Below are positions 30,805 to 60,643 of a stretch of 64,000 nucleotides of DNA, in pieces. The position numbers were made by a program, and so were the translations under genes. The stretch spans positions 1,860,001-1,924,000 of the forward strand of contig NW_027117342.1 of NCBI RefSeq assembly GCF_038025025.1. Reading direction: 5' to 3'. The notes below the pieces were generated by a model. That model searched no databases, was not told the DNA's origin, and saw nothing but the letters and a program-made list of their open reading frames with translations. Source of the DNA: Phyllosticta citribraziliensis. Taxonomy: Eukaryota. Positions within the stretch are counted from its first letter, which is position 1; each line of letters opens with the position of its first letter.

Positions 30805-31220
30805 TATTACGACTTGCAGATTTCTTATTGCGCAGGTAAGGGCTAAAGGCAAACTGCTAGAGAATATATATATATCTTAATTAAATATAATAAGTTAAAA
30901 GAATAAAATATAAAAGATACTTACTACCTATATATTTCCTAGTCCTTCCTTTATACTATTCTACCTCTTATCCTTTATATAAGGGTCCTTGGTTATTATT
31001 AGGTAAGTTATAAAGGTGAGGTATTAATGGGCTATTATATAGTATCTACCTAGGGCTATAGTAGCTGGTGCTAGCCTATAGTAGCTGGTGCCAGCCTATA
31101 GGTTTTAGCCTGAGCTGTGGTGGGCTGCTACCTGAGGTAAGGCTTAGGTTTTAGCCTAAGCTATAGTAGGCTGCTACTTAAGGTAAGGCTTATATAGGTA
31201 TATATATGCCTATTATAACA
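30805..31220 (-). repeat. 3' LTR of B1 (variant with 46-bp duplication)
   Basis: Matches 46784-47199 in length and in the internal duplication. Confidence 0.95.
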
Positions 31221-31438
31221 TGCCCCCCCTAAAGAGAAGCTAAAATTATAGGAATTAGCAGCTATAGGTGCTTATATAGGCATAGACTTATAATATATAA
31301 TAGTAGTAATTTAGTAATTTAAGCGTTCTATATAGTTATAAAGTATAATTATTAGTCTAGGTCTATTACTATACTATCTCTTTCTATTACTATCTCTTTT
31401 ACTATATAACCTATAGAAGGTTACTATCTTACTTAGCT

Positions 31439-32911
31439 ATATCTAAAGCTCCCTATTAAAGTATGTTATTATCCTAGTCTAATTTAGCTATAATCTAGTA
31501 AACTAACTATTACGCGTAAAGGTTCTAATAATTTAAATAATTTATACCCTACTAATAGTAAAGCAGATATTCCTAGCTACTATATACTTAATATATCTGC
31601 TACTTATTATAGTCTAGTCTATTAGGACTTATTACTATTATATAAGAGTTATAGTATTAAGTTATTATCGCGCGGCATTATTTATAATCTATTATAGTTA
31701 CTACTTACTTAGAGAGCTGTTTTAGCTGGCAGTATCTATAAGGGCTATTATATAGAGTCCTAAGGTAAGTAAACTTTAATTCTATCTCTTTAGACTATTA
31801 CTAATTATTATCTAGGCTATTAAGTAGTATTATATATCTAGGTTTTACTACTTTATTGTCCCATCTTACTGACTGATATAATTATAGGGGAGGATACTTA
31901 TATAAATACTTAGTTAGGCTAGGCTTTACTTATTTAGCTAGGAACTACTATAGGCTTATTACTTTACCTATAGTATGCTATAGTATTAGGTTCTACTTAA
32001 TTAGTATTATTAGTTATCGCGTAAGGTTTGTTATCTATAGCTGTATAGCCTGCTACTAACCAGCCTATTACGCCGCGTTACTGCTAGTTTACTATTATAT
32101 AGCCTGTTTTAGAGGAAGAAGGTAAAGAGCCTACTTATATATACTATTATTATAATCCTATAGCTTATTAGGTTCTAGCAGCTAAGTACTTACTACCTAC
32201 TACTTTATATAATAGTAGTAATAGTAAGATTCGTATTATAGCGTTGCTAGTTAGCTCTAATAAGGTGCCTATTAAGTGGGACTTTAAGTTAATACTTTAT
32301 ATCCCTTATAAGAATATAGAGAGTGTCGCGTGAGTAAGTTTATCTTACTAATATAAGGGATTCTTATCTGACTAACTATATAGGCGCGCCTTAGTAGTTC
32401 TAAAGTATAAGAGCGCGCTAAATGTATCTTAGCCTTAGATAATAGTATACCTTACTCATATATTATAGTTTCTACTTAGTAATTTAACTACTTATTAGTT
32501 AAAACTTAAGCTAGCTTGCGCGATGCTTTTCTTATCTAGTATACTAGAATTAATAACCCTATTAGCTATACTAAGTATTATAATAATACTAATACTCGCG
32601 CGTTTATTAGTTATTACTACCTGCCTAGTTTCTTATAGGGCCGTTGCGCTAACTGCCTTTAGGGTATAGGTAACTTAGACTATACTATTAGTAACTTAAA
32701 AGGTACCAAGCCACCTACTTATTATAAGAGGTATAAAGATAAAATTTATATAGAGGAGTTCTAGAACTTATACTACTAAGCTAGAGTAGAGGATTAAACT
32801 AATTAGGCTTTAGCTAAGTAGGATATCCTGCCTAATAAGCTAGAGGATTTAGAGGAGACTATCTTATATAATAATAGTTATAATAAGAAGAAGGGAAAAG
32901 GATAGAAGTAA
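31439..32911 (+). pseudogene. antisense accessory gene of B1 (4 exons, ~436 aa, DUF3716-like Cys domain), RIP-mutated
   Basis: Exons 31439-31460, 31522-31764, 31816-32333, 32384-32911 total 1311 nt in one frame. Introns have GTATGT/GTAAGT donors and CTAAC/CTAAT branch sites. GRCANCL is readable directly at ~32639-32659. Confidence 0.8.
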
Positions 32912-35900
32912 AGGGTAGAAAGTAAAGAAGAGGGAAGTAGGGGATAAGTAGTAAAAAGGAGAGACTAGAGAGTAGAAGTTAAGGTTAATAGTATTTATAT
33001 AAGGGTAGATAGTAAACTAATTAGTCTACTTTCTATATCTTTATAATATTTACTATAGGCCTAAGTAACTTATTTTATTATTACTTTCTATTTTAATCTA
33101 TAGTTCTTCTTAGAGGAAGGTAGTCTTCTATTTTTCTAGATTTTTTAGTAGTCCTACTATAGTAGGGTATAATAAGTAGAATTCTTTAATTTTCTATAGT
33201 ATGCTGCTAAAAGAACTTATATTATACTACTAGTTATCTTAGTTATATCTAGTCTATTTAACTTAGTATTAAAGCTTTTTATATAAGACTTAACTAGTTT
33301 AAATATAGTCTACTTCCTACTTAGGCTTGTCTTAAATAATCTTAGGTTCTAGTTTAGTATATTCTTAACTAGGAAGCTGTTCTATTTCAGCCTTATATAG
33401 CCTATTAGTATAGAAAAGGTTAACTATCTTTATATATAAGGGAAGATTAAGGATATAGGAGGGTCCTTCTATTCCTATAATCTTAAAAGGTCTAGTATTA
33501 GGGAAGTCTAATTTAAGGTTTAGCTAATTAGTAGACTATCCTATTTTCTTAATATAGATGTAATCTCTAACTATAAAGTCTAGTATATAATGGTATTTAT
33601 TAGCTTATTAGCATATATACTCTTAGGATTTAAGAATAAGATTCTTTATAAATTTAAAAGCTTCTTATCTTCTCTTTTATAGTATTTATACTACTATATG
33701 AGCTATCTTTTCTAGTTACTAGGGGGTCTCTATTCTTTATTACTAGTTATAGTATATTTAAGGGGAATATCCTAACTTAATCTTAAAAGGTAAAAGTCTA
33801 GTAGCTTTATAGGGAAGTATTACTTATATAAGGTCTATTAATAGTAGAAGATTAGACTAATTATTCTAAAAGTAATTAATAAAAGGTCTTAATCTTTATA
33901 TAAGATGCTAATTAATAATCTCTATAATACTATTAGTTTAAGAGTAGTAGGATGAGTTAAAATACTACTCTATACTAGTTAGCTTATATAATTTATTTAT
34001 AAATGCTGAGATAAACTGAGGGCCTTAGTTAGATAGGATAGACTTAGGGTTTCTATAAATATAATAAATATATTTATAAAAGAGCCTAGAGACTCCTTTA
34101 GTATTAATCTTTTTTATATAAGGTAAGCTAAAGGTTCTTTAACTTAACTAGTCTATAATAACTAGAATTATATTATAGCCTTTTTAGTCCTTAGGCATCT
34201 CTTTAAAATCTATAGCTAAGTATTACTAGGGTTAAGTAGGAATTTCTAGGGGTTATAGAAGGCCTAGGTCTTTATTATAAAACTCTTTTATTTAGTAGTA
34301 AATATAGTATCCTCGCCTATAAATATTAATTATATAATTTATAGCTAGCTAGTAGTAATATTACTTAAGGAGTTTTTGCATCTTTATAATACTAGGATAG
34401 GTAGTTATATAAGTAGTATATAAGGTGTTAAGTATTCTTACGCGGAGGTTATTATAATCTAGTATAAAGAGGGTACTATATTATAGTAAAAGACCATCCT
34501 TTAGTTCCTAACTATTTCTTTATTTAAGGTCTTTTAAGAGGGCTTTCTATCTTTAGAGTTCTAATTTAGAATCTTCTTAGTTTATATAGAGAAGTTTATC
34601 TAAAAATAATACTAGAGGAGGAAGTTCTTATTCTAAAATAGAAAGAGGGATAATAGTCTCTAGTAGAATAAGGTATATCTCTTATATAGCCTTTACTTTT
34701 TCTTTTTAAGTCTTTAGGTCTTCTTATTTTTAAGTAAGATAATTAGTGATGATATTTTCCTTTTCTAGTTAATAGGAGAAGTATATATAGAACTCTATAA
34801 AAAACTTAGACTATCTAGCTTATTATTAATTAAGTTGTTATTTAGTAGAGTAGTACTCTAATACCTAATAGTCTATAATTATAAGAAAAGGTTTTTTAAG
34901 GCTAATAAGTATTAGTCTCTATTCTTCTAGTCTATTCTTAATAGCTAGCAGTTCTTTATTAGATATTCTATAATAAAGTTCTATATTAGCTATTACCTTA
35001 GAGTAGAACGCTACTAGTTTCTAATTATATAAAGGTTATTAGAGCTATATTAAAATACCTATAGTAACTCTATTACTTATATCAGTCTCTATATAAGTAT
35101 TAAGAGTAGGATTATAATTAGCTAGGAGTGTATTACTATATATTAGCTTCTTAAGTTATTAAATTACCTCTTCTTCTAGGGGTCCTAGTTATTACTATTT
35201 TACCTTAGAGTATAGTTTCTCTAATAGCTAGCTAATTTATCTATAGTTAGGGAGAAATTATTAGTAGAAATTATAGAAACCTAGGAAGGATTAAAGAGCT
35301 TTAAGGGTTTTAGGTATTAGCTAGTTTTATATAGGTTCTACCTTATCTAGGTCTATTTAAATGCCTTCTATAGAAATGATATATCTAAGGAACTTTATAT
35401 AAGTAACTAAAAACTTACTCTTCTTTAAATCTACCTATAGTCCTACTTTTTATAGTCTTACTAGTACTTTTTTTACTTATTCCTTATACTCCGCAGGGTC
35501 TTTAGAGATAATGAGTATATTATCTATAAAAGCCATAATAAAATCGTCTAAATACTTAAAGAGAACCTAGTTAATAAAATATTAAAAGGCTACTAGTCTA
35601 TTACTTAATCTAAAAGGTAAGATATAGTATTTAAATAACCTATATCTTATATAGAAAGTGGTTTTATCTTCAGAATCCTTAGTAAGATAAATATAGTAGA
35701 AAGCTTATTAAATATTAAGCTTAGTATAAATCTTGCCCCTTCTAACGCGCTAAAGTAACTCTATAATAAGAGGGAGGGGGTGCAAATCCTTAGTAGTTTA
35801 TTTATTAAGCTATTAGTAGTCTATATAAAATCTCCATCCCCTACCAGGCTTTTTTACTATAAGAATAGGAGAAGTATAGGTAGTAAAGCTCTTAGTAATA

Positions 35901-35941
35901 AAGCCTTTCTAAAGGTTCTTAATGATATACTCTTTTATAGC

Positions 35942-36364
35942 TGTCACGACTTATAGATTTCTTATTATATAGGTAAGGGCTAAAGATAAACTGCTAGAGA
36001 ATGTATATATATCTTAATTAAATCTAATAAGTTAAAAGAATAAAATATAAAAGATACTTACTACCTATATATTTCCTAGTCCTTTCTTTATACTATTCTA
36101 CCTCTTGTCCTTTACATAAGGGTCCTTAGTTATTATTAGGTGAGTTATAAAGGTAAGGTGTTAATGGGCTGTTATGTGGTATCTGCCTAGGGCTATAGTG
36201 GCTGGTACTAGGCTATAGTAGCTAGTACTAGCCTATAGGTTTTAGCCTAAGCTGTAGTAGGCTGCTACCTAAGGTGAGGCTCGTGCTTCCTATAACTATA
36301 TAATGCTAGGTTTATCTATACTAGCCCTAGTACTTATATAGGTATATATATGCCTATTGTGACA
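35942..36364 (-). repeat. 3' LTR of B2
   Basis: TG...CA termini retained; followed by the polypurine tract C-run. Confidence 0.95.
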
Positions 36365-36582
36365 TGCCCCCCCTAAAGAGAAGCTGAAATTATAGGAATT
36401 AGTAGCTATAGGTGCTTATATAGGTGCAGACTTATAATATATAACAGTAGTAATTTAGTAATTTAAGCATTCTATACAGTTATAAAGTATAATTATTAGT
36501 CTAGGTCTACTACTATACTATCTCTTTCTATTACCATCTCTTTTACTATATAACCTGTAGAAGGTCGCCATCTTACTTAGCT

Positions 36583-38055
36583 ATATCTAAAGCTCCCTAT
36601 TAAAGTACGTTATTGCCCTAGTCTAATTTAGCCATGATCTAGTAAACTAACTGTCGCGCGTAAAGGTTCTAATAATTTAAATAATTTATACCCTACTAAT
36701 AGTAAAGCAGACATTCCTAGCTGCTATACACTTAATACATCTACTACTTATTATGGTCTAGTCTATTAGGACTCATTACTATTATATAAGAGTTATAGTA
36801 TTAAGTCATTATTATGCGGCATTATTTACAATCCATCGTAGTTGCCGCTCGCTTAGAGAGCTATTTTAGCTGGCAGTATCTATAAGGACCATCGTATAGA
36901 GTTCTAAGGTAAGTAAACTTTAATTCTATCTCTTTAGACTATTACTAATTATTATCTAGGCTGTTAAGTAGTATTATATATCTAGGTTTTACTACTTTAT
37001 CATCCTGTCTTGCTAACTAATATAATTATAGAGGAGGATACTTATATAAAGACTTAGTTAGGCTAGGCTTTACTTATTTAGCTAGGAACAGCTATAGGCT
37101 TGTCACTTTACCTGCGGTATACTATAGTATTAGGTTCTACTTAATTAGTATTATTAGTTATAGCGCGAGGTTTATTATCTACAGCTGCACAGCCTACTAC
37201 TAACTAGTATATTACGCCGCGTTGCTGCCAGTTTACTGTTATGCAGCCTGTTTTAGAGGAAGAAGGTAAAGAGCCTACTTATATATACTATTATTATAAT
37301 CCTACAGCTTGTTAGGTTCTAGCAGCTAAGTACTTGCTACCTACTACTTTATATAATAGCAGTAATAGTAAGATTCACGTTATAGCATTACTAGTTAGCT
37401 CTAATAAGGTACCTATTAAGTAGGACTTTAAGTCGACGCTTCACATTCCTTATAAGAATATAGAGAGTGTTATATAAGTAAGTTTATCTTACTAATATAA
37501 GGGATTCTTATCTAACTAACTATATAGGTGCACCTTAGTAGTTCTAAAGTATAAGAGCGCGCTAAATACATCTTAGCCTTAGGTAATAGTATACCTTACT
37601 TATATATTATAGTTTCCACTCAGCAATTTAACTACTTATTAGTTAAAACTTAAGCCAGCTTATGCGATGCTTTTCTTATCTAGTATACTAGAATTAATAA
37701 CCCTGTCAGCTATACTAAGTATTATAATAATACTAATACTCGCGCGTTTATTAGTTATTACCACCTGCCTAGTTTCTTATAGGGCCACTGCGCCAACTGC
37801 CTTTAAGGTATAGGCAACTTAGACTGCACTATTAGTAACTTAAAGGGTACTAAGCTATCTACTTATTATAAGAGGCATAAAGATAAAATTTATATAAAGG
37901 AGTTCTAGAACTTATACTATTAAGCCAGGGTAGAGGATTAAACTAATTAGGCTTTAGCTAAGTAGGACATCCTACCTAATAAGCTAGAGGATCTAGAGGA
38001 GACTATCTTATATAATAATAGTTATAATAAGAAGAAGGGAAAAGGAAGGAAGTAA
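36583..38055 (+). pseudogene. antisense accessory gene of B2
   Basis: Same exon lengths as in B1; introns 36605-36665, 36909-36959, 37478-37527. CANC and the final Cys (GAC TGC) are readable directly. Confidence 0.8.
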
Positions 38056-38155
38056 AGAAAGGGATAGTAGGGAATAAGTAATAAAAAGGAGAGACTAGAG
38101 AGTAGAAGTTAAGATTAATAGTATTTATATAAGGGTAGATAGTAAACTAATTAGT

Positions 38156-41100
38156 CTACTTTCTATATCTTTATAATATTTACTATAGGCCTAAGTGACT
38201 TGTTTTATTATTACTTTCTCTTTCAATCTAGGGTTCTTCTTAAAGGAAGGCAGTTTTCTATTTTTCTAGATTTTTTAGTAGTCCTGCTATAGTAGGGTGT
38301 AATAAGTAGAATTCTTTAATTTTCTATAGTATGCTACTAAAAGAACTTGCATTATACTACTAGTTATCTTAGTTATATCTAGTCTATTTAACTTAGTATT
38401 AAAGCTTCCTATATAAGACTTAACTAGCTTAAATATGGTCTACTTCCTACTTAGGCTTATCTTAAATAATCTTAGGTTTAGGTTTAGTATATTCCTAACT
38501 AGGAAGCTGTTCTATTTTAGCCTTATATAGCCTATTAGTATAGAAAAGGTTGACCATCTTTATATATAAGGAAAGATTAAGGATATAGGAGGGTCCTTCT
38601 ATTCCTATAATCTTAAAAGGTCTAGTATTAGGAAAGTCTAATTTAAGGTTTAGCCAATTAGTAGACCATTCTGTTTTCTTAATATAGATATAATCTCTAA
38701 CTATAAAGTCTAGTATGTGACGGTATTTATTAGCTTATTAGCACATATACTCTTAGGATTTAAGAATAAGATTCTTTATAAATTTAAAAGCTTCTTATCT
38801 TCTCTTTTATAGTATTTACGCTACTATACGAGCTATTTTCTCTAGTTACTAGGGGGTTTTAGTTCTTTATTACTAGTTATAGTGTAATTAAGGGGAATAT
38901 CCTAACTTAATCTTAAAAGGTAAAAGTCTAGTAGCTTTATAGGGAAGTGTTACTTGTGTGAGGTCTATTAATAGTAGAAGATTAGACTAATTATTCTAAA
39001 AGTAATTAATAAAAGGTCTTAATCTTTATATAAGATGCTAATTAATAATCTCTATAATACTATTAGTTTAAGAGTAGTAGGATGAGTTAAAATACTACTC
39101 TATACTAGTTAGCTTATATAGTTTATTTATAAACGCTGAGATGAACTGAGGGCCTTAGTTAGATAGGATAGACTTAGGGTTTCTATAAATATAGTAGATA
39201 TATTTATAAAAGAGCCTAGAGACTCCTTTAGTATTAATCTTTTTTATATAAGGCAAACTAAAGGTTCTTTAACTTAACTAGTCTATAATAACTAGGATTG
39301 CATTATAGCCCTTTTAGTCTTTAGGCATCTCTTTAAAATCTATAGCTAAGTGTTACTAGGGTTAAGTAGGAATCTCTAGGGGTTATAGAAGGCCTAGGTC
39401 TTTATTATAAAACTCTTTTATTTAGTAGCAAATATGGCATCCTCGCCTATAAATATCAATTATGCGATTTATAGCTAGCTAATAGTAATATCGCTTAAGG
39501 AGTTTTTGCATCTTTATAATACTAGGATAAGTAGTTATATAGGTAGTATATAAAGTATTAAGTATTCTCACGCGGAGGTTATTACAATCTAGTATAAAGA
39601 GTATACCATATTATAGTAAAAGACCATCCTTTAGTTCCTAACTATTTCTTTATTTAAGGTCCTTTAAGAGGGCTTTCTATTTCTAGAGTTCTAATTTAGA
39701 ATCTTCCTAGTTTATATAGAGGAGTTTATCTAAAAATAACACTAGAGGAGGAAGTTCTTATTCTAAAATAGAAAGAGGGATAATAGTCTCTAGTAGGATA
39801 AGGCACATCTCTTATACAGCCCTTACTTTTTCTTTTTAAGTCTTTAGGTCTTCTTATTTTTAAGTAAGGCAATTAGCAATAATATTTTCCTTTCCTAGTT
39901 AATAGGAGAATTATATATAGAACTCTATAAAAAACTTAGACTATCTAGCTTGTTATTAATTAAGTTGTCATTTAGTAGAGTAGTACTCTAATGCCTAATA
40001 GTCTGTAATTATAAGAAAAGGTTTTTTAAGGCTAATAAGTATTAGTCTCTATTCTTCTAGTCTATTCTTAATAGCTAGCAGTTCTTTATCTAAAATTCTA
40101 TAATAAAGTTCTATATCTGCTATTACCTTAGAGTAGAACGCTACTAGTTTCTAATTATATAAAGGTTACTAGAGCTGTATTAAAATACTAGTAGTAACTC
40201 TATTACTTATGTTGGTCTCTATACAAGTATTAAGAGTAGGGTTATAATTAGCTAGAAGTGCATTACTATATATTAGCTTCTTAAGTTATTAAATTGCCTC
40301 TTCTTCTAGGGGTCCTAGTTATTACTATTTTGCCTTAGAGTATAGTTTCTCTAATAGCCGGCTGATTTATCTATAGTTAGGGAGAAATTATTAGTAGAAA
40401 TTATAGAAACCTAGAAAGGATTAAAGAGCCTTAAGGGTTTTAGGTATTAGCTAGTTATATATAGGTTCTACCTTATCTAGGTCTATTTAAATGCCTTCTA
40501 TAGAAATGATGTATCTAAGGAACTTTATATAAATAACTAAAAACTTACTCTTCTTTAAATCTACCTATAGTCCTACCTTTTATAGTCTTACTAGTACTTT
40601 TTTTACTTATTCCTCGTGCTCTATAGGGTTTTTAGAGATAATAAGCATGTCATCTATAAAAGCTATAATAAAATCGTCTAAATACTTAAAGAGAACCTGG
40701 TTAATAAAACGTTAAAAGGCTACTAGTCTATTACTTAATCTAAAAGGTAAGACACGGTATTTAAATAACCTATATCTTATATAGAAAGTGGTTTTATCTT
40801 TAGAATCCTTAGTAAGATAGATGCAGTAGAAAGCTTATTAAATATTAAGCTTAGTATAAATCTTGCCCTTTCTAATGTGCTGAAGTAACTCTATAATAAG
40901 AGGGAGGGGGTGTAAATCCTTAGTAGTTTATTTATTAAGCTATTAGTAGTCTATGTAAAATCTCTATCCCCTACTAGGCTTTTTTACTACTAGAATAGGA
41001 GAAGCGTAGGCGGCAAAGCTTTTAGTAATAAAGCCTTTCTAAATATTCTTAATAATATACTCTTTTACAGCCTTAAGCTGTTCTAGAGACATTCTATAGA

Positions 41101-43407
41101 GAGGGCTAGGTAGAAGCTCTAGTAGACTATTATATATAAGAGATATTTTATAATTAACTCCTATATAATATAGTGGTAGCTTATTAGACTCTATTTTAGA
41201 AAATACATCTTAAAATTCCTTATAAGTAGCTAGTAGCTTAGAAGCTAATAATTCCTTAGTTTCTTTATCTTTAAGAGCTACTTAAACTTATATAAGGTTA
41301 ATAGTATAGATCTCTATTAGCGCAACTTGTATTTTATAGATAGAAAGCTTAAAAGCATCTTAAGTTTAAAATTTAATTCCCTTAATAACCTATACTAAGG
41401 GAAGAAGGCATTTATTAAAGTTTTTATCTCTATAGTCCGTATCTACTTAATGTTCTTTCTACGGTTTATTGCTTCATATGGAGACTTTTAGTAGGCGTAA
41501 AAGATGCTAAAAGGATTAGTTAACTAGTAGCTATTTCTAGACTAGTTTATATTATTTACAGTCTAGAAGAACATCGTGCTAGTTAAAAAACTATCGCCTA
41601 AGAATTATATCGTTGCGGCTAATATTATAAATAAAAGTATAAGTAGAAACTATTTAATCCTAGAAGCAGAGTTAAAGATAAAAGTAAAAATTAACTTTCT
41701 TATTTATATATTAGTTAAACCTAGTAATATTAAGCCCTTTACCTATTATTCTCTTTTTTATAGTACCTATAGACTAGAGAGTTAGTAGTAGCTTAGGGTA
41801 AATAAAACTTATACTACTAGTACTAGTATTAGCTAGGGCATAAATTTCTAAGGTACGGCTATTAGATATAATTAAGGTTTATATAGTAAAGGGTACACCT
41901 CTAATAAAGTGACTAAGATTTATATAAGAACCCTTAATATGTATTGCTCTAAGTTTAGACCTATAGTAGGAGACTTTACCTAGGTCTTATTATTTTCTAA
42001 TAAAGACTGATCTCCTTTATTTATATAGATATCTTTAGTACTTTCTTCTTTAACTAACTCTATTACCTTTATCTTAGGTTGTAGGTATTGTCTCTATAAA
42101 TAGCTAAACTGGCTGTAGCAATTATATAGTCTAATCTCTATATGGACTTCTGCTTTGCCTTTATAGGTTGTATTATATAAGGGAGCCCTAGATATAGATC
42201 GCGCCTAGATATAACTAGAAGATAAAGCACTTATACTGCCTAAGGTAGTTATCTTTACTTATTCTTATTATCTCTTCTTTACTTATTCCTTACGTGACGT
42301 GAGTATTAGTTTTCTATAGTTAGAATGGTAGTTACTAAGACTTTAAGTAATAGGGTAGGCTTATTAGAGGTACTTATAAAAGTTAATATCCCTATCTTGC
42401 TCTATAGTAACTATATAGGTTTAAAGGAGAGGATCTATTATATTATAAAAGTCCTCTTTCTACTATTCCTAGGGATGATCTATATCTAAGGCCAATTATA
42501 TAAAGTTTAATTAAAACTTCTAAAGGTCTATAGAGATATAGTATATAAGAGAGTATAACTACTTCTTTATATTCTTATATTTATATAGACTCTAGAGGAG
42601 GTTATCTAGGAATTTAAAGATATCCTTATTTAGAGTGACTTTATTAGCCTTTATATAAGAAGTAAGGAAAGGAGTTAGGTAACGTAAGACTTCTCTACTA
42701 ATATAGGAAATAATATAACCTGTAATATTCTATTTAGTCTCCTCTGCTATATCTTTAGTAAAGTGATTATAGTTTTATTTAATTTTATTTTATATAAGGA
42801 GGGTCTAGTATTTATATAAGGGGTCTTCTCTATTAGTAAGAAGAGGAGGATTAGGAACCTTACTACTTTAGTATTTCTTACTACTTAAAGATAAAGTAGA
42901 GGTTTTAGTAGTAGTTTCTCTTATATAGGTAGAAGGATCTTAAGAGAGGGTAATAGGTCTTAGGTGCTAAGCTAATAAAGAGGGCCTAATATATCCTTCC
43001 CTTAGAACTTCTCTAAGTCTATTAGTATAGTTTAAGAGTATTTACTTAAGAGCCTAGTTCTGCCTTTATATATAGTTTAGTTACTGCTACACTTAAGACT
43101 TATTTAAGGATGCAATTTTAGATTTAAATTAATTAATATCTAAGCGTAGTACCTTTATAAACACCTCTATAACTAGAGCTTAAATAGTATAAGTTGACCC
43201 TAGGTCTTAGGTATGTTCTTTTACCTCTACTACTAGGACTAAGTAGAAATTATATAGGAGAATAGGAGTAGGTCCTCTCTTATTATTATTTAATAAGTAT
43301 CTAGTATTACGCGAATCTTTAGTCCCTTTACGTAAATCTTATTAAGTTAATTAACTAGTACTAACACCTTTAGTAGTGCTAGATGTGTTAGCTTTATTCT
43401 TAGCTAT
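38156..43407 (-). pseudogene. gag-pol of B2 (ends approximate)
   Basis: CCHC knuckle (~42085-42130), protease ALADTGA (~41820-41840), RT AFIDDMLII (~40636-40665), integrase and chromodomain. Confidence 0.88.
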
Positions 43408-43703
43408 ACTATCTTTATAGTCTTCTACTTAGAATGTCCCTTAAGCAGGTTATAAATAGGACGCCTCCTAGACGTTTATATACTACCCTATAGTCTTAAC
43501 TAAAGACTTCTATAGTTAATATATACTTAATACTCCTTAGTCCTTAGATAATACTAATGCGCCTAATAAAGATGACTTAGGTTTACTAAGGAAAAGTAAC
43601 AAGTAGTCTTATATAAGACTATAGCTATACACGACGTTACTTAGGTTAAATATTATAACACCTTTATAGGTAAAGAAGTAGGATAGAGCTAAAACTTAGA
43701 ATG

Positions 43704-43714
43704 ATCTTTTATAT
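43704..43714 (-). promoter_or_regulatory. putative self-priming primer-binding site (PBS) of family B
   Basis: ATCTTTTATAT, 1 nt from the 5' LTR, is the exact reverse complement of the LTR 11-mer ATATAAAAGAT (43819-43829). Same arrangement in B1 and B3. Confidence 0.65.
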
Positions 43715-43715
43715 C

Positions 43716-44138
43716 TATTATAACTTATAGATTTCTTATTATATAGGTAAGGGCTAAAGGTAAACTGCTAGAGAATATATATATATCTTAATTAAATCTA
43801 ATAAGTTAAAAGAATAAAATATAAAAGATACTTACTACCTATATATTTCCTAGTCCTTTCTTTATACTGTTCTACCTCTTGTCCTTTATATAAGGGTCCT
43901 TAGTTATCATTAGGTGAGTTATAAAGGTAAGGTGTTAATGGGCTGTTATATAGTATCTACCTAGGGCTATAGTAGCTGGTGCCAGGCTATAGTGGCTAGT
44001 ACCAGCCTGCAGGTTTTAGCCTGAGCTGTAGTAGGCTACTACCTAAGGTGAGGCTCGTGCTTCCTATAACTATACGACGCTAGGTTTATCCGTACTGGCC
44101 CTGGTACTTATATAGGCGCGTGTATGCCTATTATAATA
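43716..44138 (-). repeat. 5' LTR of B2
   Basis: 423-bp direct repeat of 35942-36364, followed by TSD ATAGC. Confidence 0.95.
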
Positions 44139-46783
44139 ATAGCCTTAAGCTACTCTAGAGATATTCTATAGAGAGGACTTAGTAGAAGCTCTAGTAGACT
44201 ATTATATATAAGAGTTATTTTATAATTAACTCCTATATAATATAGTAGTAGCTTATTAGACTCTATTTTAAAAAACACATCTTAAAATTCCTTATAAGTA
44301 GCTAGTAGCTTAGAAGCTAGTAATTCCTTAGTTTCTTTATCTTTAAGAGCTGCTTAAACTTATATAAGGTTAATAGTATAGATCTCTATTAGTATAAGTT
44401 ATAATTTATAGATAGAAATCTTAAAAGTATCTTAATTTTAAAATTTAATTCCCTTAATAACCTATACTAAGGGAAGAAGGTGTTTATTAAATTTTTTATC
44501 TCTATAGTCTATATCTACTTAGTATTCTTTCTATGGTTCTTTACTTTATATAGAGACTTTTAGTAGGCATAAAAGATACTAAAAGGATTAGTTAACTAGT
44601 AGCTATCTCTAGACTAGTTTATATTATTTATAGTCTAGAAGAACATTATGCTGGTTAAAAAACTATTACCTAAGAATTATATTATTATAGCTAATATTAT
44701 AAATAAAAGTATAAGTAGAAACTATTTAATCTTAGAAATAGAGTTAAAGATAAAAGTAAAAATTAACTTTCTTATTTATATATTAGTTAAACCTAGTAAT
44801 ATTAAGCCCTTTACCTATTATTCTCTTTTTTATAGTACCTATAGACTAGAGAGTTAGTAGTAGCTTAGGATAAATAAAACTTATACTACTAGTACTAGTA
44901 TTAGCTAGGGTATAAATTTCTAAGGCATAGCTATTAGATATAATTAAGGTTTATATAGTAAAGGGTACACCTCTAATAAAGTAACTAAGATTTATATAAG
45001 AACCTTTAATATATATTACTCTAAGTTTAGACCTAAGGTAGGAGACTTTACCTAGGCCTTATTATTTTCTAATAAAGACTAATCTCCTTTATTTATATAG
45101 ACTTCTTCTATACTTTCTTCTTCTACTAACTCTATTACCTTTATCTCTAGTTATAGGTATTACCTCTATAAATAGCTAAACTAGCTGTAGTAATTATACA
45201 GTCTAATCTCTATATAGACTTCTACTTTACCTTTACAGGTTATATTATATAAGGGAGCCCTAGATATAGATTACATCTAGGTATAACTAGAAGATAAAGT
45301 ACTTATACTACCTAAGGTAGTTATCTTTACTTATTCTTATTATCTCTTCTTTACTTAATCCTCACGCGACGTGAGTATTAGTTTTCTATAATTAGAATAG
45401 TAGTTACTAAGACTTTAAGTAATAGGGTAGGCTTATTAAAGGTACTTATAAAAGTTAATATCCTTATCTTACTCTATAGTAACTATATAGGTTTAAAGGA
45501 GAGGATCTATTATATTATAAAAGTCCTCTTTCTACTATTCTTAGGGAAGATCTATATCTAAGGCTAATTATATAAAGTTTAATTAAAACTTCTAAAGGTC
45601 TATAGGAATATAGTATATAAGAGAGTATAACTACTTCTTTATATCCTTATATTTATATAGACTCTAGAGGAGGTTATCTAGGAATTTAAAGATATCCTTA
45701 TCTAGAGTAACTTTATTAGTCTTTATATAAGAAGTAAGAAAAGGAGTTAGGTAATATAAGACTTCTCTACTAATATAGGAAATAATATAACCTATAATGT
45801 TTTATTTAGTCTCCTCTACTATATCTTTAGTAAAGTAATCATGGTTTTATTTAATTTTATTTTATATAAGGAGGGTCTAGTATTTATATAAGGGGTCTTC
45901 TCTATTAGTAAGAAGAGGAGGATTAGGAACCTTACTACTATAGTATTTCTTACTACTTAAAGATAAAGTAGAGGTTTTAGTAGTAGTTTTCCTTATATAG
46001 TTAGGAGGAGGTTTAAGAGTAATAGGTCTTAGGTACTAAGCTAATAAAGAGGGCCTAATATATCCTTCCCTTAGAACTTCCCTAAGTCTATTAGTATAGT
46101 TTAAGAGTATTTACTTAAGAGCCTAGTTCTACCTTTATACGTAGTTTAGTTACTACTGTACTTAAGACTTGTTTAAGGATATAATCTTAGATTTAAATTA
46201 ATTAATATCTAAGCGCGGTACCTTTATAAATGCCTCTATAACTAGAGCTTAAACTGTATAAGTTAACCCTAGGTCTTAGGTATATTCTTTTACCTCTACT
46301 ACTAGGACTAAGTAGAAATTATATAGGAGAATAGGGGTAGGTCCCCTCTTATTATTATTTAATAAGTATCTAGTATTATATAAATCTTTAGTCCCTTTAC
46401 GCGAATCTTATTAAGTTAATTAACTAGTACTAATACCTTTAGTAGTACTAGATATATTAGCTTTATTCTTAGCTATACTATCTTTATAGTCTTCTACTTA
46501 GAATGTCCCTTAAGTAGGTTATAGATAGGATACCTCCTAAATATTTATATACTACCCTATAGCCTTAACTAAAGACTTCTATAGTTAATATATACTTAAT
46601 ACTCCTTAGTCCTTAGATAATACTAATGCGCCTAATAAAGATGACTTAGGTTTACTAGGGAAAAGTAATAAGTAGTCTTATATAAGACTATAGCTGTATA
46701 TAATGTTACTTAGGTTAAATATTATAATACCTTTATAGGTAAGAAGTAGGATAGAGCTAAAACTTAGAATAATCTTTTATATC

Positions 46784-47199
46784 TATTATAACTTATAGAT
46801 TTCTTATTATATAGGTAAGGGCTAAAGGTAAACTACTAGAGAATATATATATATCTTAATTAAATATAATAAGTTAAAAGAATAAAATATAAAAGATACT
46901 TACTACCTATATATTTCCTAGTCCTTTCTTTATACTATTCTACCTCTTATCCTTTATATAAGGGTCCTTAGTCATTATTAGGTAAGTTATAAAGGTGAGG
47001 TGTTAATAGGCTATTATGTAGTATCTACCTAGGGCTATAGTGGCTAGTGCTAGCCTGTAGTAGCTAGTGCCAGCCTATAGGTTTTAGCCTAAGCTGTGGC
47101 GGGCTGCTACCTGAGGTAAGGCTCAGGTTTTAGCCTAAGCTATAGCAGGCTGCTGCCTGAGGTGAGGCTTATATAGGCGCGTGTACGCCTATTATAATA
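46784..47199 (-). repeat. 5' LTR of B1
   Basis: 416-bp direct repeat of 30805-31220, followed by TSD ATATC. Confidence 0.95.
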
Positions 47200-50100
47200 A
47201 TATCTATAGTTAGTAAAGAATAGGGATATACTAATAGAGGAGTTAATATAGTTATTAAGAGTAAATTTAATATAGAGAAGCTAGAATATCTAGTTATTTT
47301 AGTAGTAGTTAATAAAGGTATAGAGGATATTCTTAATAGATTTATTAGTTACTTTAATCTAGCTATTAGTCTTAAGATACTAGGCTAAAGAGTACTTAAT
47401 TTTAATACTATAATAGTAGTAGATATAGTACTAAACTTAGATAAGTATAGTACTACTATAGTTATTAATAAATTCCTTATAGAAATCTTATATATAGAAG
47501 AGGTAATAGGTAATAGCCTTATATAAGGAGTTAACCCTATTATCTAGAAGTCCTTCTAAGATAATAGCCTTTATAAGGTAGTTAACTATAATAAGGATAT
47601 AGGAGTAGTTTTAATTAGAGAAATAAGAGCCTAGAAGGTACTTAATAAAGTTAAAGCTAATACTAGTCTAGTAGTAGGCTAGTAGTTCTAGTAGTTAAAG
47701 GAAATCTTACTTCTTTTAGTTATTAATAGAGGACTAGTAGTATTAGGTATAAGTATAGGTAAAGATTAAGTAGTTATTCTTTAGATTAGGCTAATAGTAG
47801 GAGTAGCTAATAAGTTTACTTATTAACTTATAGCTAGAGTAACTAAGGTATAGTAGAAAGTAATAAGCCTATATAATCTTAAGATATAGTTTAGAGTTAT
47901 TAGAGATAAAGAACTAGTTTCTTATAAAAAAATAGCTATCCTTAACCTTTAAGTATCCTATATAGAGGTAATAGCCCTTTTTAATAAGGAGTACTAAAAT
48001 CTTTAGATTCTAGTTCTATATAGCTATTATAAGGTATTATATATTCTTATTAATCTTATAGACTTTAGTAATAAATTCCTATAGGTAAGTAGTACTAGGG
48101 GCTTTATAGCTTTCTTCTAGTAGAGTAGTTAGTAAGGATAGAGGGGATAGATTAGAAGTAATAGAGATAGGCTAGTCTATAGTATAAGGTATAATAGAGA
48201 GGTAGAAGATAGCTAACTATAAGATAGGGTCTAGGTAGTATTATTTTAAAATAGTCTAGTATTAGTATAATTAATAGATATTAGAGTTATTTTAAGGAAG
48301 GTTTTAGGAGTATCTAATAAGAGAATTAGGTTTCTTACCCTACTTATTAGAGTAATATATAATTTTAAAGTTAAACTTAGATAGGAACTTAGCCTAGTAG
48401 GCCTATTAATAATTAAGATTCTTAATAATTATAAACTATTCTAGGTTCTTATAGTCTAAGAAGATCTTTACTAGGTTATCTAGTTCTATACTAATAGCTT
48501 TAAGGTACTAGGATTCTAGTATCTTAATAATAATAAGTAACTCCTTATTATAGATTTTATAGTTATACTTTATTAGGGATATCTTCTTAGAAAAGAAGGC
48601 TACTAGGTAAAGTTATCTATTAATAACTTAGAAGAGGACTCTAGTAATAATAAAGTTAGAAGTATCTATCTTAATCTATATTTCCTACTTAGAGTTAAAG
48701 TAGGTAAATATTAAAGTAGAAGTAAATATAGTTTTAAGAGCTTAAAAGGTATATTTATATTTAAGAGTCTAATTTAAAATAGTATAAATATAGTATTTCT
48801 TTTTTAAAGGGATAGTCTTTAGTTCCCCTTTAATAAGTTCTATAAGTAGTTAAGTAAGTAAGGAGAAATCCTTAATAAAATAGTAATAGAAATTAATAAA
48901 GCTAAGAAAGGCCTAGATATCTTTAATAAACTTTAGAATTTATTAGTCTAGTACTACTTCTATTTTTTTAGGGTCTATATAGATACTATTAATACTAATA
49001 AAAAGACTAAGGTATTTAACTTCTTTTATATAGAACTTATACTTATAGATATTAATAAAGAGCTTCTAATTAAGTAAGTAGATAATAACCTTCTAGATAT
49101 ATTCCTTATATTTCTCTAGTATCTTACTAAAGATAAGAATATTATTAAGATAGGCTATAGTCTAAAGGTTAAAATAATTCTTAAAGGAGTTATTAATATA
49201 GCTTTAGAAAGTTCTAGGAGTATTATAAAGTCTAAATAATATTATTAGGTACTTAAACTAATTATAGTAGATAATAAAGGCTATTTTCTATTTATCTCCT
49301 ATAGTAATCTAAATTCTATTAAAGATAGTAATAATATTAAGCTTTATAAAGTACTTATAGTTCTAGAGGTACTAGAGAGTCTTAGCTATATTTAGAATTA
49401 GATATTAGTTTTTAATAGTAATCTTATTAAGGCCCCTATAGTTAATATAGACCTAAAGGCCTCTACTAGGTTTTTAAATAATAAGTACTAGAGCTATAGC
49501 TAGAGAGGAGCTAGAGTAAGTATATTCTTTATATATAAGGTTATTAATATAATAGTAGATTACTTCTATCTTTTATAGGTTAAGAGATTAGTAACTATAG
49601 ATAAATAAGGGATCCTTTCTAGCTTTAAGGGTAATTTTATAATCTTTAAAGGAGTAGTTAGGTAGGGATTTAGCCTAGTCCTAATTAAAGATAGAGATAA
49701 GATTATAGAGGTAATTAGAAACTTATAATTTAAGTTTAAAAGATAAGAGCTTTAATTTTCCTTTCTTAAACTTCTTAAAGTCTTTAGAAGTAATAGTATT
49801 TATTATTATAGAGTAGAGCTAAATAGTAGAGTTAATTAAAAAGAAAATACCTAAATTATAGTCTTATTTATAGATAAGTTAGTAGAAGGATATAGTACTA
49901 ATAAGTTTTATATTAAAGACTAATTACTCTATACCTTATTATAGTAGGGGGGTATTTATAATAAGGATTTAGACTAGTTTTCCTTTAATAAGATAACTAG
50001 CTTAGAGGTAGTTCTTAAAAGAAAGAGTAACTAAGTACTACTTATAATTAATAATAATATTATACTTAGAGAGCTAGAGGTCTCCTAAGATAAGAAAAAT

Positions 50101-50422
50101 TTATAGAATAGTAATAATATAGTAGAAGACCTAGCTAATATAGTCTTCTAGTACTATATTTACTAGAGTAGTATATTTAAGAATAGAGTTAATTAATCTA
50201 TTAATATTAAGGAGCTTTATAGGTAACTAAAATAGAAATATATTAATATAATATTTATATATATAGTTCTTATTAATTATATTTACTTTAGTACTACTAT
50301 TAAGTAAGATCTTTATAGGGGAACTAACTATTAAAGAATAAAAGACTAAGTAGCCTCTAATTTAAGATTAGATAATATCTAATATTAAAATCTTATAAGA
50401 TAGTAAGCTAAGAGTTAAATCT

Positions 50423-50845
50423 TATTACGACTTATAGATTTCTTATTATATAGGTAAGGGCTAAAGGTAAACTGCTAGAGAATATATATATATCTTAATT
50501 AAATCTAATAAGTTAAAAGAATAAAATATAAAAGATACTTACTACCTATATATTTCCTAGTCCTTCCTTTATACTATTTTACCTCTTATCCTTCGCACAA
50601 GGGTCCTTAGTTATTATTAGGTAAGTTATAAAGGTAAGGTGTTAATAGGCTGTTATATAGTATCTGCCTAGGGCTATAGTGGCTGGTGCCAGGCTGTAGT
50701 AGCTAGTACTAGCCTGCGGGTTTTAGCCTGAGCTATAGTGGGCTGCTACCTGAGGTGAGGCTTATACTTCTTATAACTATATAATACTAGGTTTGTCTAT
50801 ACTAGCCCTAGTGCTTATATAGGTATATATATACCTATTATGACA
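50423..50845 (-). repeat. 3' LTR of B3
   Basis: Ends ...TGACA, followed by the polypurine tract C-run. Confidence 0.95.
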
Positions 50846-51063
50846 TGCCCCCCCTAAAGAGAAGCTGAAATTATAGGAATTAGTAGCTATAGGCGCTCGT
50901 ATAGGTGTAGACTTATAATGTATAATAGTAGTAATTTAGCAATTTAAGCATTCTATATAGTTATAAAGTATAATTATTAGTCTAGGTCTACTACTATACT
51001 ATCTCTTTCTATTACTATCTCTTTTACTGCGCGACCTATAGAAGGTTGCTATCTTGCTTAGCT

Positions 51064-52533
51064 ATATCTAAAGCTCCCTATTAAAGTACATTGTTGCCCT
51101 AGTCTAATTTAGCTATAATCTGGTAAATTAACTGTTGCGCGTAAAGGTTCTAATAATTTAAATAATTTATACCCTACTAATAGTAAAGTAGACATTTCTA
51201 GCTACTATATACTTAATGTATCTACTACTTATTATAGTCTAGTCTATTAGGACTCATTACTATCGCGTAAGAGTTATAGTATTAAGTTATTATTACATGG
51301 CGTTATTTATAATCTGTTATAGTTACTACTTACTTAGAGGGCTATTTTAGCTAGTAGTATCTATAAGGACTATTATATAGAGTCCTAAGGTAAGTAAACT
51401 TTAATTCTATCTCTAACTATTACTAATTATTATCTAGGCTGTTAAGTAGTATTATATATCTAGGTTTTACTACTTTATTATCCCGTCTTGCTGACTGATA
51501 TAATTGTAGAGGAGGACACTTATATAAAGACTTAGTTAGGCTAGGCTTTACTTATTTAGCTAGGAATAGCTATAGGCTTATTGCTTTACCTATAGCATAC
51601 TATAGTATTAGGTTCTACTTAATTAGTATTATTAGTTGTCGCGTAAGGTTCATTATCTATAGCTATATAGCCTGCTACTAACTAGTACATTACGCTATAT
51701 CGCTGCCGGTTTACTGTCGCGCAGCCTATTTTAGAGGAAGAAGGTAAAGAGCCTACTTATATATACTATTATTATAATCCTATAGCTTATTAGGTTCTAG
51801 CAGCTAAGTACTTACTGCCTGCTACTTTATATAATAGTAGTAATAGTAAGATTTATATTGCAGCATTACTAGTTAGCTCTAATAAGGCGCCTATTAAGTA
51901 GGACTTTAAGTTAATACTTTACATCTCTTATAAGAATATAGAGAGTGTCGCGCGAGTAAGTTTATCTTACTAATATAAGGGATTCTTATCTAACTAACTA
52001 TATAGGTGCGCCTTAGTAGTTCTAAAGTATAAGAGTGCGCTAAGTGTATCTTAGCCTTAAGTAACAGCATGCCTTACTCATATATTATAGTTTCTACTTA
52101 GCAATTTAACTACTTATTAGTTAAAACTTAAGCCAGCTCGCGCGATGCTTTTCTTATCTAGTATACTAGAATTAATAACCCTATTAGCTATACTAAGTGT
52201 TATAATAATACTAATACTCGCGCGTTTATTAGTTATTACTACCTGCCTAGTTTCTTATAGGGCTGCTGCGCCAACTGCCTTTAGGGTATAGGCAACCTTA
52301 ACTATACTATAAGTAACTTAAAGGGTGCCAAGCCGCCTGCTTATTATAAGAGGCATAAAGACGAAATTTATATAGAGGAGTTCTAGAACTTATACTACTA
52401 AGCCAGGTTAGAGGATTAAACTAATTAGGCTTTAGCTAAGTAGGACATCCTACCTAATAAGCTAGAGGATCTAGAGGAGATAGTCTTATATAATAACTAT
52501 TATAATAAGAAGAAGGGAAAAGGAAAGAAGTAA
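51064..52533 (+). pseudogene. antisense accessory gene of B3
   Basis: Collinear with B1/B2. The only length difference found is a 3-nt deletion inside intron 2. Ends KKKGKGKK-stop. Confidence 0.8.
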
Positions 52534-52647
52534 AGGGTAGAAATTAAAGAAGAGGATAGTAGGGAATAAGTAGTAAAAAGGAGAGACTAGAGAGTAGAAG
52601 TTAAGATTAATAGTATTTATATAAGGGTAGATAGTAAACTAATCAGT

Positions 52648-55600
52648 CTACTTTCTATATCTTTATAATATTCGCTATAGGCCTAAGTGACTTATTTTAT
52701 TATTACTTTCTATTTTAATCTATAGTTCTTCTTAGAGGAAGGCAGCCTTCTATTTTTCTAGATTTTTTAGTAGTCCTGCTATAATGGGGTGTAATGAGTA
52801 GAATTCTTTAATTTTCTATAGTACGCTGCTAAAAGAACTTGCGTTATACTACTAGTTATCTTAGTTATATCTAGTCTATTTAACTTGGTATTAAAGCTTC
52901 CTATATAAGACTTAACTAGCTTAAATATAGTCTACTTCCTACTTAGGCTTATCTTAAATAATCTTAGGTTTAGGTTTAGTATATTCCTAACTAGGAAGCT
53001 ATTCTATTTCGGCCTTATATAGCCTATTAGTATAGAAAAGGTTAACCATCTTTATATATAAGGGAAGATTAAGGATATAGGAGGGTCCTTCTATTCCTAT
53101 AATCTTAAAAGGTCTAGTATTAGGGAAGTCTAATTTAAGGTTTAGCTAATTAGTAGACCATCTAGTTTTCTTAATATAGATATAATCTCTAACTATAAAG
53201 TCTAGCGTGTAATAGTATTTATTGGCTTGTTAGTATATATGCTCTTAGGATTTAAGAATAAGATTCTTTATAAATTTAAAAGCTTCTTATCTTCTCTTTT
53301 ATAGCGTTTGCGCTACTATATAAGCTATCTTTTCTAGTTGCTAGGGGGTCTCTATTCTTTATTACTAGTTATAGTATATTTAAGGGGAATATCCTAACTT
53401 AATCTTAAAAGGTAAAAGTCTAGTAGCTTTATAGGGAAGTGTTACTTGTATAAGGTCTATTAATAGTAGAAGATTAGACTAATTATTCTAAAAGTAATTA
53501 ATAAAAGGTCTTAATCTTTATATAAGATGCTGATTAACAATCTCTATAATACTATTAGTTTAAGAGTAGTAGGATAAGTTAAAATGCTACTCTATACTAG
53601 TCAGCTTATATAGTTTATTTATAAATGCTAAGATGAACTGAGGGCCTTAGTTAGATAGGATAGACTTAGGGTTTCTATAAATATAGTAGATATATTTATA
53701 AAAGAGTCTAGAGACTCCTTTAGTATTAATCTTCTTTATATAAGGCAAGCTAAAGGTTCTTTAACTTAATTAGTCTATAATAACTAGGATTGTATTATAG
53801 CCTTTTTAGTCTTTAGGCATCTCTTTAAAATCTATAGCTAAGTGTTACTAGGGTCGAGTAGGAATCTCTAGGGGTTATAGAAGGCCTAGGTCTTTATTAT
53901 AAAACTCTTTTATTTAGTAGTAAATATGGCATCCTCGCCCGTAAATATTAATCATATAATTTATAGCTAGCTAGTAGTAATGTTACTTAAGGAGTTTTTA
54001 TATCTTTATAATACTAGGATGGGCAGTTATATAGGTAGTATATAAAGTATTAAGCATTCTTATATAGAGGTTATCGCAATCTAGTATAAAGAGGGTGCTA
54101 TATTATAATAAAAGACCATCCTTTAGTTCCTAACTATTTCTTTATTTAAGGTCTTTTAAGAGGGCCTTCTATCTCTAGAGTTCTAATTTAGAATCTTCTT
54201 AGTTTGCGCAGAGAAGTTTATCTAAAAATAATACTAGAGAAGGAAGTTCTTATTCTAAAATAAAAAGAGGGATAATAGTCTCTAGTAGGATAAGGCATAT
54301 CTCTTATATAGCCTTTACTTTTTCTTTTTAAGTCTTTAGGTCTTCTTATTTTTAAGTAAGGTAATTAGTGATGATATTTTCCTTTCCTAGCTAATAGGAG
54401 AATCATATGTAGAACTCTATAAAAAACTTAGACTATCTAGCTTGTTATTAATTAAGTTGTTATTTAGTAGAGTAGTACTCTAATGCCTAATAGTCTGTTA
54501 TTATGAGAAAAGGTTTTTTAAGGCTAATAAGTATTAGTCTCTATTCTTCTAGTCTATTCTTAATAGCTAGTAGTTCTTTATTAGATATTATTAGCTTCTT
54601 AAGTTGTTAAATTGCCTCCTCTTCTAGGGGTCCTAGTAGTTGCTATTTTGCCTTAGAGTATAGTTTCTCTAATAGCCAGCTAATTTATCTATAGTTAGGG
54701 AGAAATCGTTAGTAGAAATTATAGAAACCTAGGAAGGATTAAAGAGCTTTAAGGGTTTTAAGTATTAGCTAGTTTTATATAGGTTCTACCTTATCTAGGT
54801 CTATCTAAATGCCTTCTGTAGAAACGATGTATCTAAGGAACTTTATATAAGTAACTAAAAACTTACTCTTCTTTAAATCTACCTATAGTCCTGCTTTTTA
54901 TAGTCTTACTAGTACTTTTTTTACTTATTCCTCGTGCTCTGTAGGGTCTTTAGAGATAATGAGCATGTTATCTATAAAAGCTATAATAAAATCATCTAAA
55001 TACTTAAAGAGAACCTGGTTAATAAAATGTTAAAAGGCTACAGGTCTATTACTTAATCTAAACGGCAAGATACGGTATTTAAATAAGCCGTATCTTATAT
55101 AGAAGGTGGTTTTGTCTTTAGAATCCTTAGTAAGATAAATATAGTAGAAAGCTTATTAAATATCAAGCTTAGTATAAATCTTGCCCTTTCTAACGCGCTA
55201 AAGCAACTCTATAATAAGAGGGAGGGGGTATAAATCCTTAGTAGTTTATTTATTAAGCTATTAGTAGTCCACGTAGAATCTCCATCCCCTACTAGGCTTT
55301 TTTACTATAAGAATAGGAGAAGCGTAGGTGGTAAAGCTCTTTATAATAAAGCCTTTTTAAATATTCTTAATGATATACTCTTTTGCAGCCTTAAGCTACT
55401 CTAGAGATATTCTATAGAGAGGGCTAGGTAGAAGCTCTAGTAGACTATTATATATAAGAGATATTTTATAATTAACTCCTATACAATACGGTAGTAGCTT
55501 ATTAGACTCTATTTTAGAAAATACATCTTAAAATTCCTTATAAGTAGCTAGTAGCTTAGAAGCTAATAATTCCTCAGTTTCTTTATCTTTAAGAGCCGCT

Positions 55601-60642: not shown

Positions 60643-60643
60643 A

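Follow-up and report, generated by a model that had tools for sequence, protein, structure and literature searches.

Relic of an antisense accessory gene, probably of DUF3716 type, in three mutated Gypsy retrotransposons of Phyllosticta citribraziliensis

What is the extra DNA that lies between the pol gene and the 3′ long terminal repeat (LTR) in three heavily mutated Ty3/Gypsy retrotransposon copies of Phyllosticta citribraziliensis? The copies, designated B1, B2, and B3 (family B), lie in a window of 64,000 nucleotides (positions 1,860,001 to 1,924,000 of the forward strand of contig NW_027117342.1, assembly GCF_038025025.1), which is the whole stretch of DNA analyzed here and to whose first letter all coordinates refer unless another contig is named. 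A preliminary description of the window, made from its letters alone, had placed in this extra DNA a spliced gene encoding a Cys-rich protein that resembles the fungal domain DUF3716 (PF12511). The relic of a gene that is borne by the element and lies antisense to pol, tail-to-tail with it, is real; its division into four exons and 437 codons appears plausible from the arrangement of intron motifs, and its Cys-rich end is very probably a true homolog of DUF3716. Taken as a whole, the reading of three Gypsy copies killed by repeat-induced point mutation (RIP), each with the relic of an antisense accessory gene whose C-terminal domain is of the DUF3716 type, is in our judgment reasonably probable.

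Whether the extra DNA belongs to the element depends on how the three copies arose. Their anatomy is given below, with the basis of each feature in parentheses (TSD, target-site duplication; RVT_1, RT_RNaseH, and rve are Pfam domains).

50423..58492, minus strand: copy B3, a full-length Ty3/Gypsy LTR retrotransposon inactivated by RIP (self-BLAST, LTR termini, TSD, and RVT_1)
50418-50422 and 58493-58497: TSD of B3, AATCT, 5 bp
50423..50845, minus strand: 3′ LTR of B3, 423 bp, with TG...CA ends partly mutated by RIP (terminus inspection)
58070..58492, minus strand: 5′ LTR of B3, 423 bp (terminus inspection)
50846..50855, minus strand: polypurine tract (PPT) of B3, reading AGGGGGGGCA on the minus strand and abutting the 3′ LTR (read directly from the sequence)
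54829..55305, minus strand: reverse transcriptase domain of B3 pol (RVT_1, E=1.5e-20, 74.2 bits, residues 1063-1221 of the frame from 58491)
54412..54591, minus strand: RNase H-like domain of B3 pol (RT_RNaseH, E=5.2e-4, 20.6 bits, below the 24.8-bit cut-off)
53629..53859, minus strand: integrase core of B3 pol (rve, E=0.0014, 19.3 bits, a weak match below the 32.6-bit cut-off)
52639..52815, minus strand: 3′ end of B3 pol, with a chromodomain-like stretch and seven candidate stops between 52752 and 52639
35942..44138, minus strand: copy B2, full-length, inside B1 (TSD ATAGC at 35937-35941 and 44139-44143)
30805..47199, minus strand: copy B1, split by B2 into 30805-35941 and 44144-47199 (TSD ATATC at 30800-30804 and 47200-47204)

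Each of the three copies has its own 5-bp TSD, and the site within B1 that received B2 is uninterrupted in B3 (GCAGC at ~55385). Given these separate TSDs and the nesting of B2 in B1, the copies are three independent integrations of one Ty3/Gypsy family and not local duplications; consequently, the extra DNA between pol and the PPT belongs to the element and was carried through retrotransposition. Assignment to Ty3/Gypsy follows from the direct LTRs with TG...CA ends, the 5-bp TSD, the PPT beside the 3′ LTR, and the order of reverse transcriptase, RNase H, and integrase along the minus strand, of which only RVT_1 scores above its cut-off. As for the chromodomain that would mark a chromovirus, the Pfam Chromo model gave no match in pol at E-values up to 10, and the chromodomain-like stretch was recognized by eye only. 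The pol of B3 also lacks 174 nt that are present in B1 and B2 (at ~54589; 34967-35140 in B1), between the reverse transcriptase and RNase H matches. In B3, the extra DNA extends over ~1.8 kb from the last candidate pol stop (52648-52650) to the PPT (plus strand, 50846-50855), and its presence in all three copies, as first described, was reproduced by coordinates. With pol placed on the minus strand by RVT_1, RT_RNaseH, and rve, the gene relic on the plus strand is indeed antisense to pol and tail-to-tail with it. This layout stands; however, the exact value of ~114 bp that had been given for the gap to pol in B1 does not, because the true pol stop is uncertain (candidates lie within 52639-52752).

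Any coding content of the extra DNA has to be read through heavy mutation. RIP is a process of filamentous ascomycetes. The family B copies occupy a 35-kb AT-rich block at ~25.5-60.5 kb, in which the GC content is 24-33% as compared with ~56% on both sides (window composition). The TpA/ApT ratio is 1.80 in the block versus 0.55 in the flank, and the (CpA+TpG)/(ApC+GpT) ratio is 0.22 versus 1.26. This block is RIP-mutated, and the signature is clear. The three accessory regions (31439-32911, 36583-38055, and 51064-52533) are 92-93% identical in alignment, and the columns that vary among them comprise 211 transitions and 12 transversions. All three copies are dead, killed by RIP. A public run labeled with the same species contains four short contigs that are 90-95% alike to window positions 51302-52700; they differ from it by transitions only, in both directions, and show no joints. 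These transition-only differences imply that more RIP-diverged copies of family B exist in that material. The other run with the same species label yielded no contigs matching the accessory region.

On the plus strand of the extra DNA, one gene model was drawn for each copy.

51064..52533, plus strand: accessory gene model of B3, 437 codons with 28 internal stops (exons 51064-51085, 51147-51389, 51438-51955, and 52006-52533)
31439..32911, plus strand: accessory gene model of B1 (exons 31439-31460, 31522-31764, 31816-32333, and 32384-32911)
36583..38055, plus strand: accessory gene model of B2 (exons 36583-36604, 36666-36908, 36960-37477, and 37528-38055)

The four exons join into 437 codons in all three copies, across introns of 61, 51 (48 in B3), and 50 nt. 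The three introns of 50-61 nt proposed in the preliminary description can be placed in every copy, with intron 2 of B3 falling just short of that range, but the structure is unproven. When both strands of a 5,151-nt de-RIP consensus were scanned with a regular expression for fungal introns (donor, branch site, and acceptor), exactly three matches were obtained, all of which are the proposed introns; the expectation within the block is ~0.33 matches per 1.5 kb per strand. The four-exon, 437-codon structure is plausible because the canonical intron motifs are gathered in this region and are absent from the rest of the consensus. The spliced frame contains 26-32 stops per copy with the terminal one (25-31 internal), of which 23 are common to all three copies. 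It contains only 0-1 Trp and 1-5 Gln as against 41-49 Tyr among its 437 codons, a scarcity and an excess that fit the action of RIP in turning Trp and Gln codons into stops and Cys and His codons into Tyr. Among the plus frames, the frame set by splicing has the fewest stops in exon 3 and ties for the fewest in exon 2, and the proposed frame is mostly the best by codon log-odds. Two arguments offered earlier for the model add nothing to this. It is true that all internal stops are codons that RIP can create, but this holds for every stop codon and is uninformative; likewise, the equal exon lengths and the single, intronic indel have no power, the alignment of 5,334 columns containing just 7 indel events, and a second indel, of 14 nt, lies in B2 at or just after the stop.

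The Cys-rich part lies in exon 4 of each model.

52147..52311, plus strand: DUF3716-like Cys-rich domain relic of B3 (exon-4 residues 48-102)
32525-32689, plus strand: DUF3716-like domain relic of B1
37669-37833, plus strand: DUF3716-like domain relic of B2

The Cys-rich motif quoted in the preliminary description is present. A 36-nt degenerate DNA pattern, back-translated from the window's inferred motif G-F-x2-G-x-C-A-N-C-x-W, matched five loci in metagenome contigs. Four of the five are chance matches in non-coding frames, two of those four being duplicates. The fifth, L001, is a single open reading frame (ORF) of 170-174 residues at positions 1887-2396 on the minus strand of its metagenomic contig, and it contains a DUF3716 domain at residues 92-145 according to Pfam (E=1.1e-12, 48.2 bits; the gathering score of PF12511 is 22 bits). 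The L001 gene is small and free-standing, with an acidic tail, and Pfam found no retroelement domain in the three other ORFs tested. The Atlas clusters nearest to L001 are 93-99% PF12511, consist of proteins of 158-223 residues, and belong to Ascomycota; together with these clusters, the RIP signature of the window accords with the fungal (Ascomycota) distribution of DUF3716.

Residues 92-145 of L001 align to the window with one gap of a single residue and have six Cys positions in common with it, and the window thus shares the Cys/aromatic signature and spacing of a verified DUF3716 member. C-A-N-C is intact in all three copies, and for four of the six shared Cys the unaltered codon stands in one copy or more. 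The AFLIQ of L001 stands at the same distance upstream as the window's AFLI followed by TAG. The likeness to free-standing DUF3716 proteins such as L001 accordingly covers C-x2-C ... F-x2-C ... G-F-x2-G-x-C-A-N-C-x-W ... C and the preceding AFLIQ; the difference is that those proteins are encoded by host genes of ~160-220 residues, whereas the model here has 437 codons inside a retrotransposon. In a BLASTP comparison, L001 matched the raw translation of B2 with E=3e-4, exactly over the range of the Pfam domain. In an anchored test, the fit also extended beyond the residues with which L001 was fished. When the 12-residue fished motif was left out and the 33 and 8 flanking residues of L001 were anchored at the motif, the true site ranked first among the 9,908 anchor positions that the six frames of the 5,151-nt de-RIP consensus offer, and it did so under all three schemes, namely plain comparison, RIP reversal limited to TpA, and unrestricted RIP reversal. 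In unmasked local alignments to L001, both RIP-aware and plain, the three loci were the top 3 to 4 of 1,548 segments. Under unrestricted reversal, a very AT-rich segment of the minus strand (59284-59015) scored as high as the true loci; its score was gone when reversal was limited to TpA, and the segment was rejected. There, Y-x3-Y-x2-Y-stop-K was aligned to C-x3-C-x2-C-Q-K of L001; the signal is probably artefactual, or else comes from the Cys-rich region of gag in the second, more degraded Gypsy element described below. The retrieval of L001 at the matching position and the fit of its flanks suggest that the Cys-rich end is DUF3716-like, as had been proposed, and make true homology very probable; formal membership of PF12511 is likely but unproven, the Pfam and HMMER searches with the mutated sequence being negative.

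Other searches gave little further information. Two motif patterns had no matches in viral contigs, and no relatives were found in viral contigs with pol (the peptide patterns having been drawn from RIP-mutated pol) or with L001. A word-indexed protein search with the L001 ORF, covering longer lengths, gave no match, and a sequence search of the PDB with L001 gave only a MYND finger (E=1.6). An AlphaFold2 model of L001, made without an alignment, had a predicted local distance difference test score (pLDDT) of 34, too low for a fold search.

A number of results weigh against the reading of an antisense gene with a DUF3716-type end, and these concern both the domain and the gene model. In Pfam runs on RIP-mutated translations, in which stops were read as X, DUF3716 was found in 0 of 3 exon-4 translations and 0 of 12 accessory-region frames at E-values up to 5-10. 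An exhaustive HMMER search of 1.84 billion proteins with the three-copy exon-4 alignment gave a single spurious match (a TPR-repeat protein, rejected because it matches ‘ANCL.S.GDL’ ten times), and word-indexed protein searches with exon 4 of B2 (near lengths) and with the three-copy alignment (longer lengths) gave no match. When the fished positions were masked and placement was free, the loci fell outside the top 10-12 of 1,548 segments; phmmer with L001 against the six-frame consensus gave E=0.012 unmasked and no match masked; and the lead of the true site over the runners-up in the flank test was small. With regard to the gene model, the stop density of the spliced frame (32/438 in B1) is similar to that of an unspliced plus frame (35/491), and codon log-odds, trained on the RIP-mutated pol of the element, are negative for every exon; these statistics, like the indel counts, have too little power for a judgment on the exon model. 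Exons 1-3 had no homolog in the Pfam search of the 12 frames of the accessory region, and the proteins in the DUF3716 clusters near L001 are far shorter than 437 residues. One of the short run contigs spans intron 2 unspliced, the RNA nature of that run being a guess. Finally, zinc binding, DNA binding, and a role for the element are only inferred, as are the nuclear localization and the regulatory, targeting, or anti-silencing function suggested in the preliminary description. Two more of these points are themselves weak. The failure of Pfam is weak evidence because RIP destroys Cys (TGY) and Trp codons and has also eroded the integrase and chromodomain signals of the element, and the unspliced contig is weak because the element's own genomic RNA would look identical.

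The alternative that survives best keeps the domain and shortens the gene. Exon 4, perhaps joined over intron 3 to the last part of exon 3, may have encoded a DUF3716 protein of ~155-230 residues, with exons 1-3 being promoter or leader and the other intron-like motifs being due to chance; we regard this as possible, without thinking it probable. It would agree with the lengths of the Atlas clusters nearest to L001 and with L001 itself, which is a single ORF of 170 residues, and in B3 an ATG survives 26 codons before the domain. It would also agree with the lack of homology and of coding-statistic support in exons 1-3, and with the brevity of exon 1, which has just 7 codons and whose start is inferred, ATA being derived from ATG. 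However, all three canonical sets of intron motifs fall in one stretch of 1.5 kb and none occurs elsewhere in the 10.3 kb of the two consensus strands, and the frames set by splicing are the lowest in stops in exon 3, tied in exon 2, and mostly the best by codon score. The four-exon structure stands as no more than a plausible model, to which the shorter gene is a serious rival.

How does such a gene compare with known systems? Boty-like Gypsy elements of Botrytis and Sclerotinia carry brtn, an antisense extra gene between pol and the 3′ LTR that was published in 2011 (Virology 417:248, as cited in PMC7264820, PMC8365987, PMC4227169, and PMC5987419), and the gag-pol of Boty is described in one of these citing articles as carrying reverse transcriptase, integrase, and CHROMO domains (PMC4227169). 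As far as these citing articles describe it, the likeness comprises an ascomycete host, a Gypsy element, and an extra gene between pol and the 3′ LTR that is antisense to gag-pol; it rests on position and orientation as described there, and not on the BRTN protein sequence. In family B, this position and the opposite strand are found in all three copies. The systems differ in that the family B copies here are all RIP-dead, with a chromodomain seen by eye only. A second comparison concerns the domain. REP9-1 and REP9-2 are reported as DUF3716 genes inside REP9, a DNA transposon of IS3EU type in Zymoseptoria tritici, where expression of REP9-1 affected the formation of pycnidia (excerpts of PMC8232023). 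In these excerpts, as in family B, a DUF3716 accessory gene is carried by a mobile element of a filamentous ascomycete; by contrast, REP9 is a class II DNA transposon and not an LTR retrotransposon, and there is no antisense-to-pol arrangement. In plants, the Ty3/Gypsy elements Grande, RIRE2, Retand, and PvRetro13 carry further ORFs that run antisense in the interval from pol to the 3′ LTR, according to passages of the review PMC7264820. Their position and orientation are the same, and their proteins are described as conserved within families and of unknown function. However, they belong to plant lineages and are unrelated in protein, and DUF3716 is not among the features reported in that part of PMC7264820. 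A full-text literature search found no published link of DUF3716 or PF12511 to LTR elements. The statement in the preliminary description that the arrangement was uncharacterised was thus overstated: an antisense gene in the pol-3′ LTR position is already known, as are DUF3716 genes in a transposon (the latter reported in the excerpts of PMC8232023), and the relic looks closer to brtn, the antisense gene of Botrytis elements, than to anything of a new class.

These systems bear on the second alternative, namely that an ancestor of family B took up, in a single event, all or part of a DUF3716 gene of its host, which has since been a passenger with no role in the life cycle of the element. DUF3716 genes do exist as ordinary small fungal genes, and no sign of selection can be read from copies whose differences are all RIP transitions. 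On the other hand, the gene was kept through at least three integrations, the same arrangement is described in Boty-like elements of two genera (a passage of PMC7264820), and the DUF3716 genes in an unrelated DNA transposon (PMC8232023, in its excerpts) hint at a recurrent tie to mobile elements; a mere passenger is accordingly unlikely.

The least probable alternative, which we consider quite unlikely, is that there is no gene at all and that the 1.8 kb is a non-coding spacer between pol and the LTR, as in some plant lineages, with a Cys-rich pattern produced by chance through free reversion of TpA: every database search for it that started from the sequence of the window itself was negative, the masked, unanchored tests were non-significant, the frame is full of stops, and the AT-rich segment at ~59284-59015 matched the score of the true locus under unrestricted reversal, but a pattern derived from the motif hit a Pfam-verified DUF3716 domain at the matching position, the anchored flank test placed the true site first under three schemes, C-A-N-C and most of the shared Cys can still be read, and RIP has eroded known domains too (the integrase to 19 bits, the chromodomain beyond detection).

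Next to the family B copies lies a second, more degraded Gypsy element at 47205-50417 on the minus strand, with matches to RT_RNaseH_2 (E=6e-12) and RVT_1 (E=3e-5). This element appears to be the host of the B1 and B3 insertions and probably continues at 58498-60849 and 29837-30799. A repeat of 209 bp, found at 29837-30045 and 60641-60849 and 96% alike, may be part of its LTRs.

The preferred explanation is that the 1.8-kb region between pol and the PPT carries what remains of an accessory gene of the element, encoded on the opposite strand to pol, whose product would have ended in a DUF3716-type Cys-rich domain followed by an acidic stretch and then a Lys-rich tail. In active ancestors, a promoter of its own, close to the side of the 3′ LTR, would have driven transcription of the gene antisense to the genomic RNA. 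The short spliceosomal introns of the gene would have stayed in the sense genomic RNA, where they are not recognized, and would thus have been copied at each retrotransposition. That antisense orientation explains the survival of the introns was proposed in the preliminary description; the logic is sound and matches the published antisense extra ORFs. The protein would most likely have been a nuclear factor that coordinated zinc, bound nucleic acid, and controlled the transcription or targeting of the element. The literature gives a lead for such a role: NCU05718 of Neurospora crassa is described as the ortholog of a DUF3716 protein of Fusarium (in an extract of PMC10776026), and it is a direct binder of double-stranded TTAGGG repeats in which no DNA-binding domain is annotated (as stated in part of PMC4650311), its tie to DUF3716 being the reported orthology only. 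From this analogy, a DNA-binding accessory factor for the control of transcription or for targeting appears the most likely role, with low confidence. In the P. citribraziliensis copies themselves, each with 25-31 internal stops, the gene does nothing.

Because these copies are dead relics, their value is that of a pointer and not of a working system. It is tempting to speculate that DUF3716 is a DNA-binding zinc module of mobile elements. It would have been enlisted more than once by fungal LTR retrotransposons, in the form of spliced antisense genes of the brtn type, and by DNA transposons (REP9), as a means of directing how they are transcribed or integrated; the free-standing DUF3716 proteins of hosts, among them a binder of telomere repeats that sexual development requires, would then be domesticated versions. 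As a whole, this view is tentative and, for the present, doubtful. If the arrangement were confirmed in intact elements, the orphan fungal domain DUF3716 would gain its first clear genomic context, as an accessory gene of class I and class II transposons, and a domain name could be put to the extra antisense genes of fungal Gypsy elements, which are poorly understood. Two questions would then be open to test: do such proteins bind DNA of the LTRs or of the target, and do the DUF3716 proteins of fungal hosts derive from transposons?

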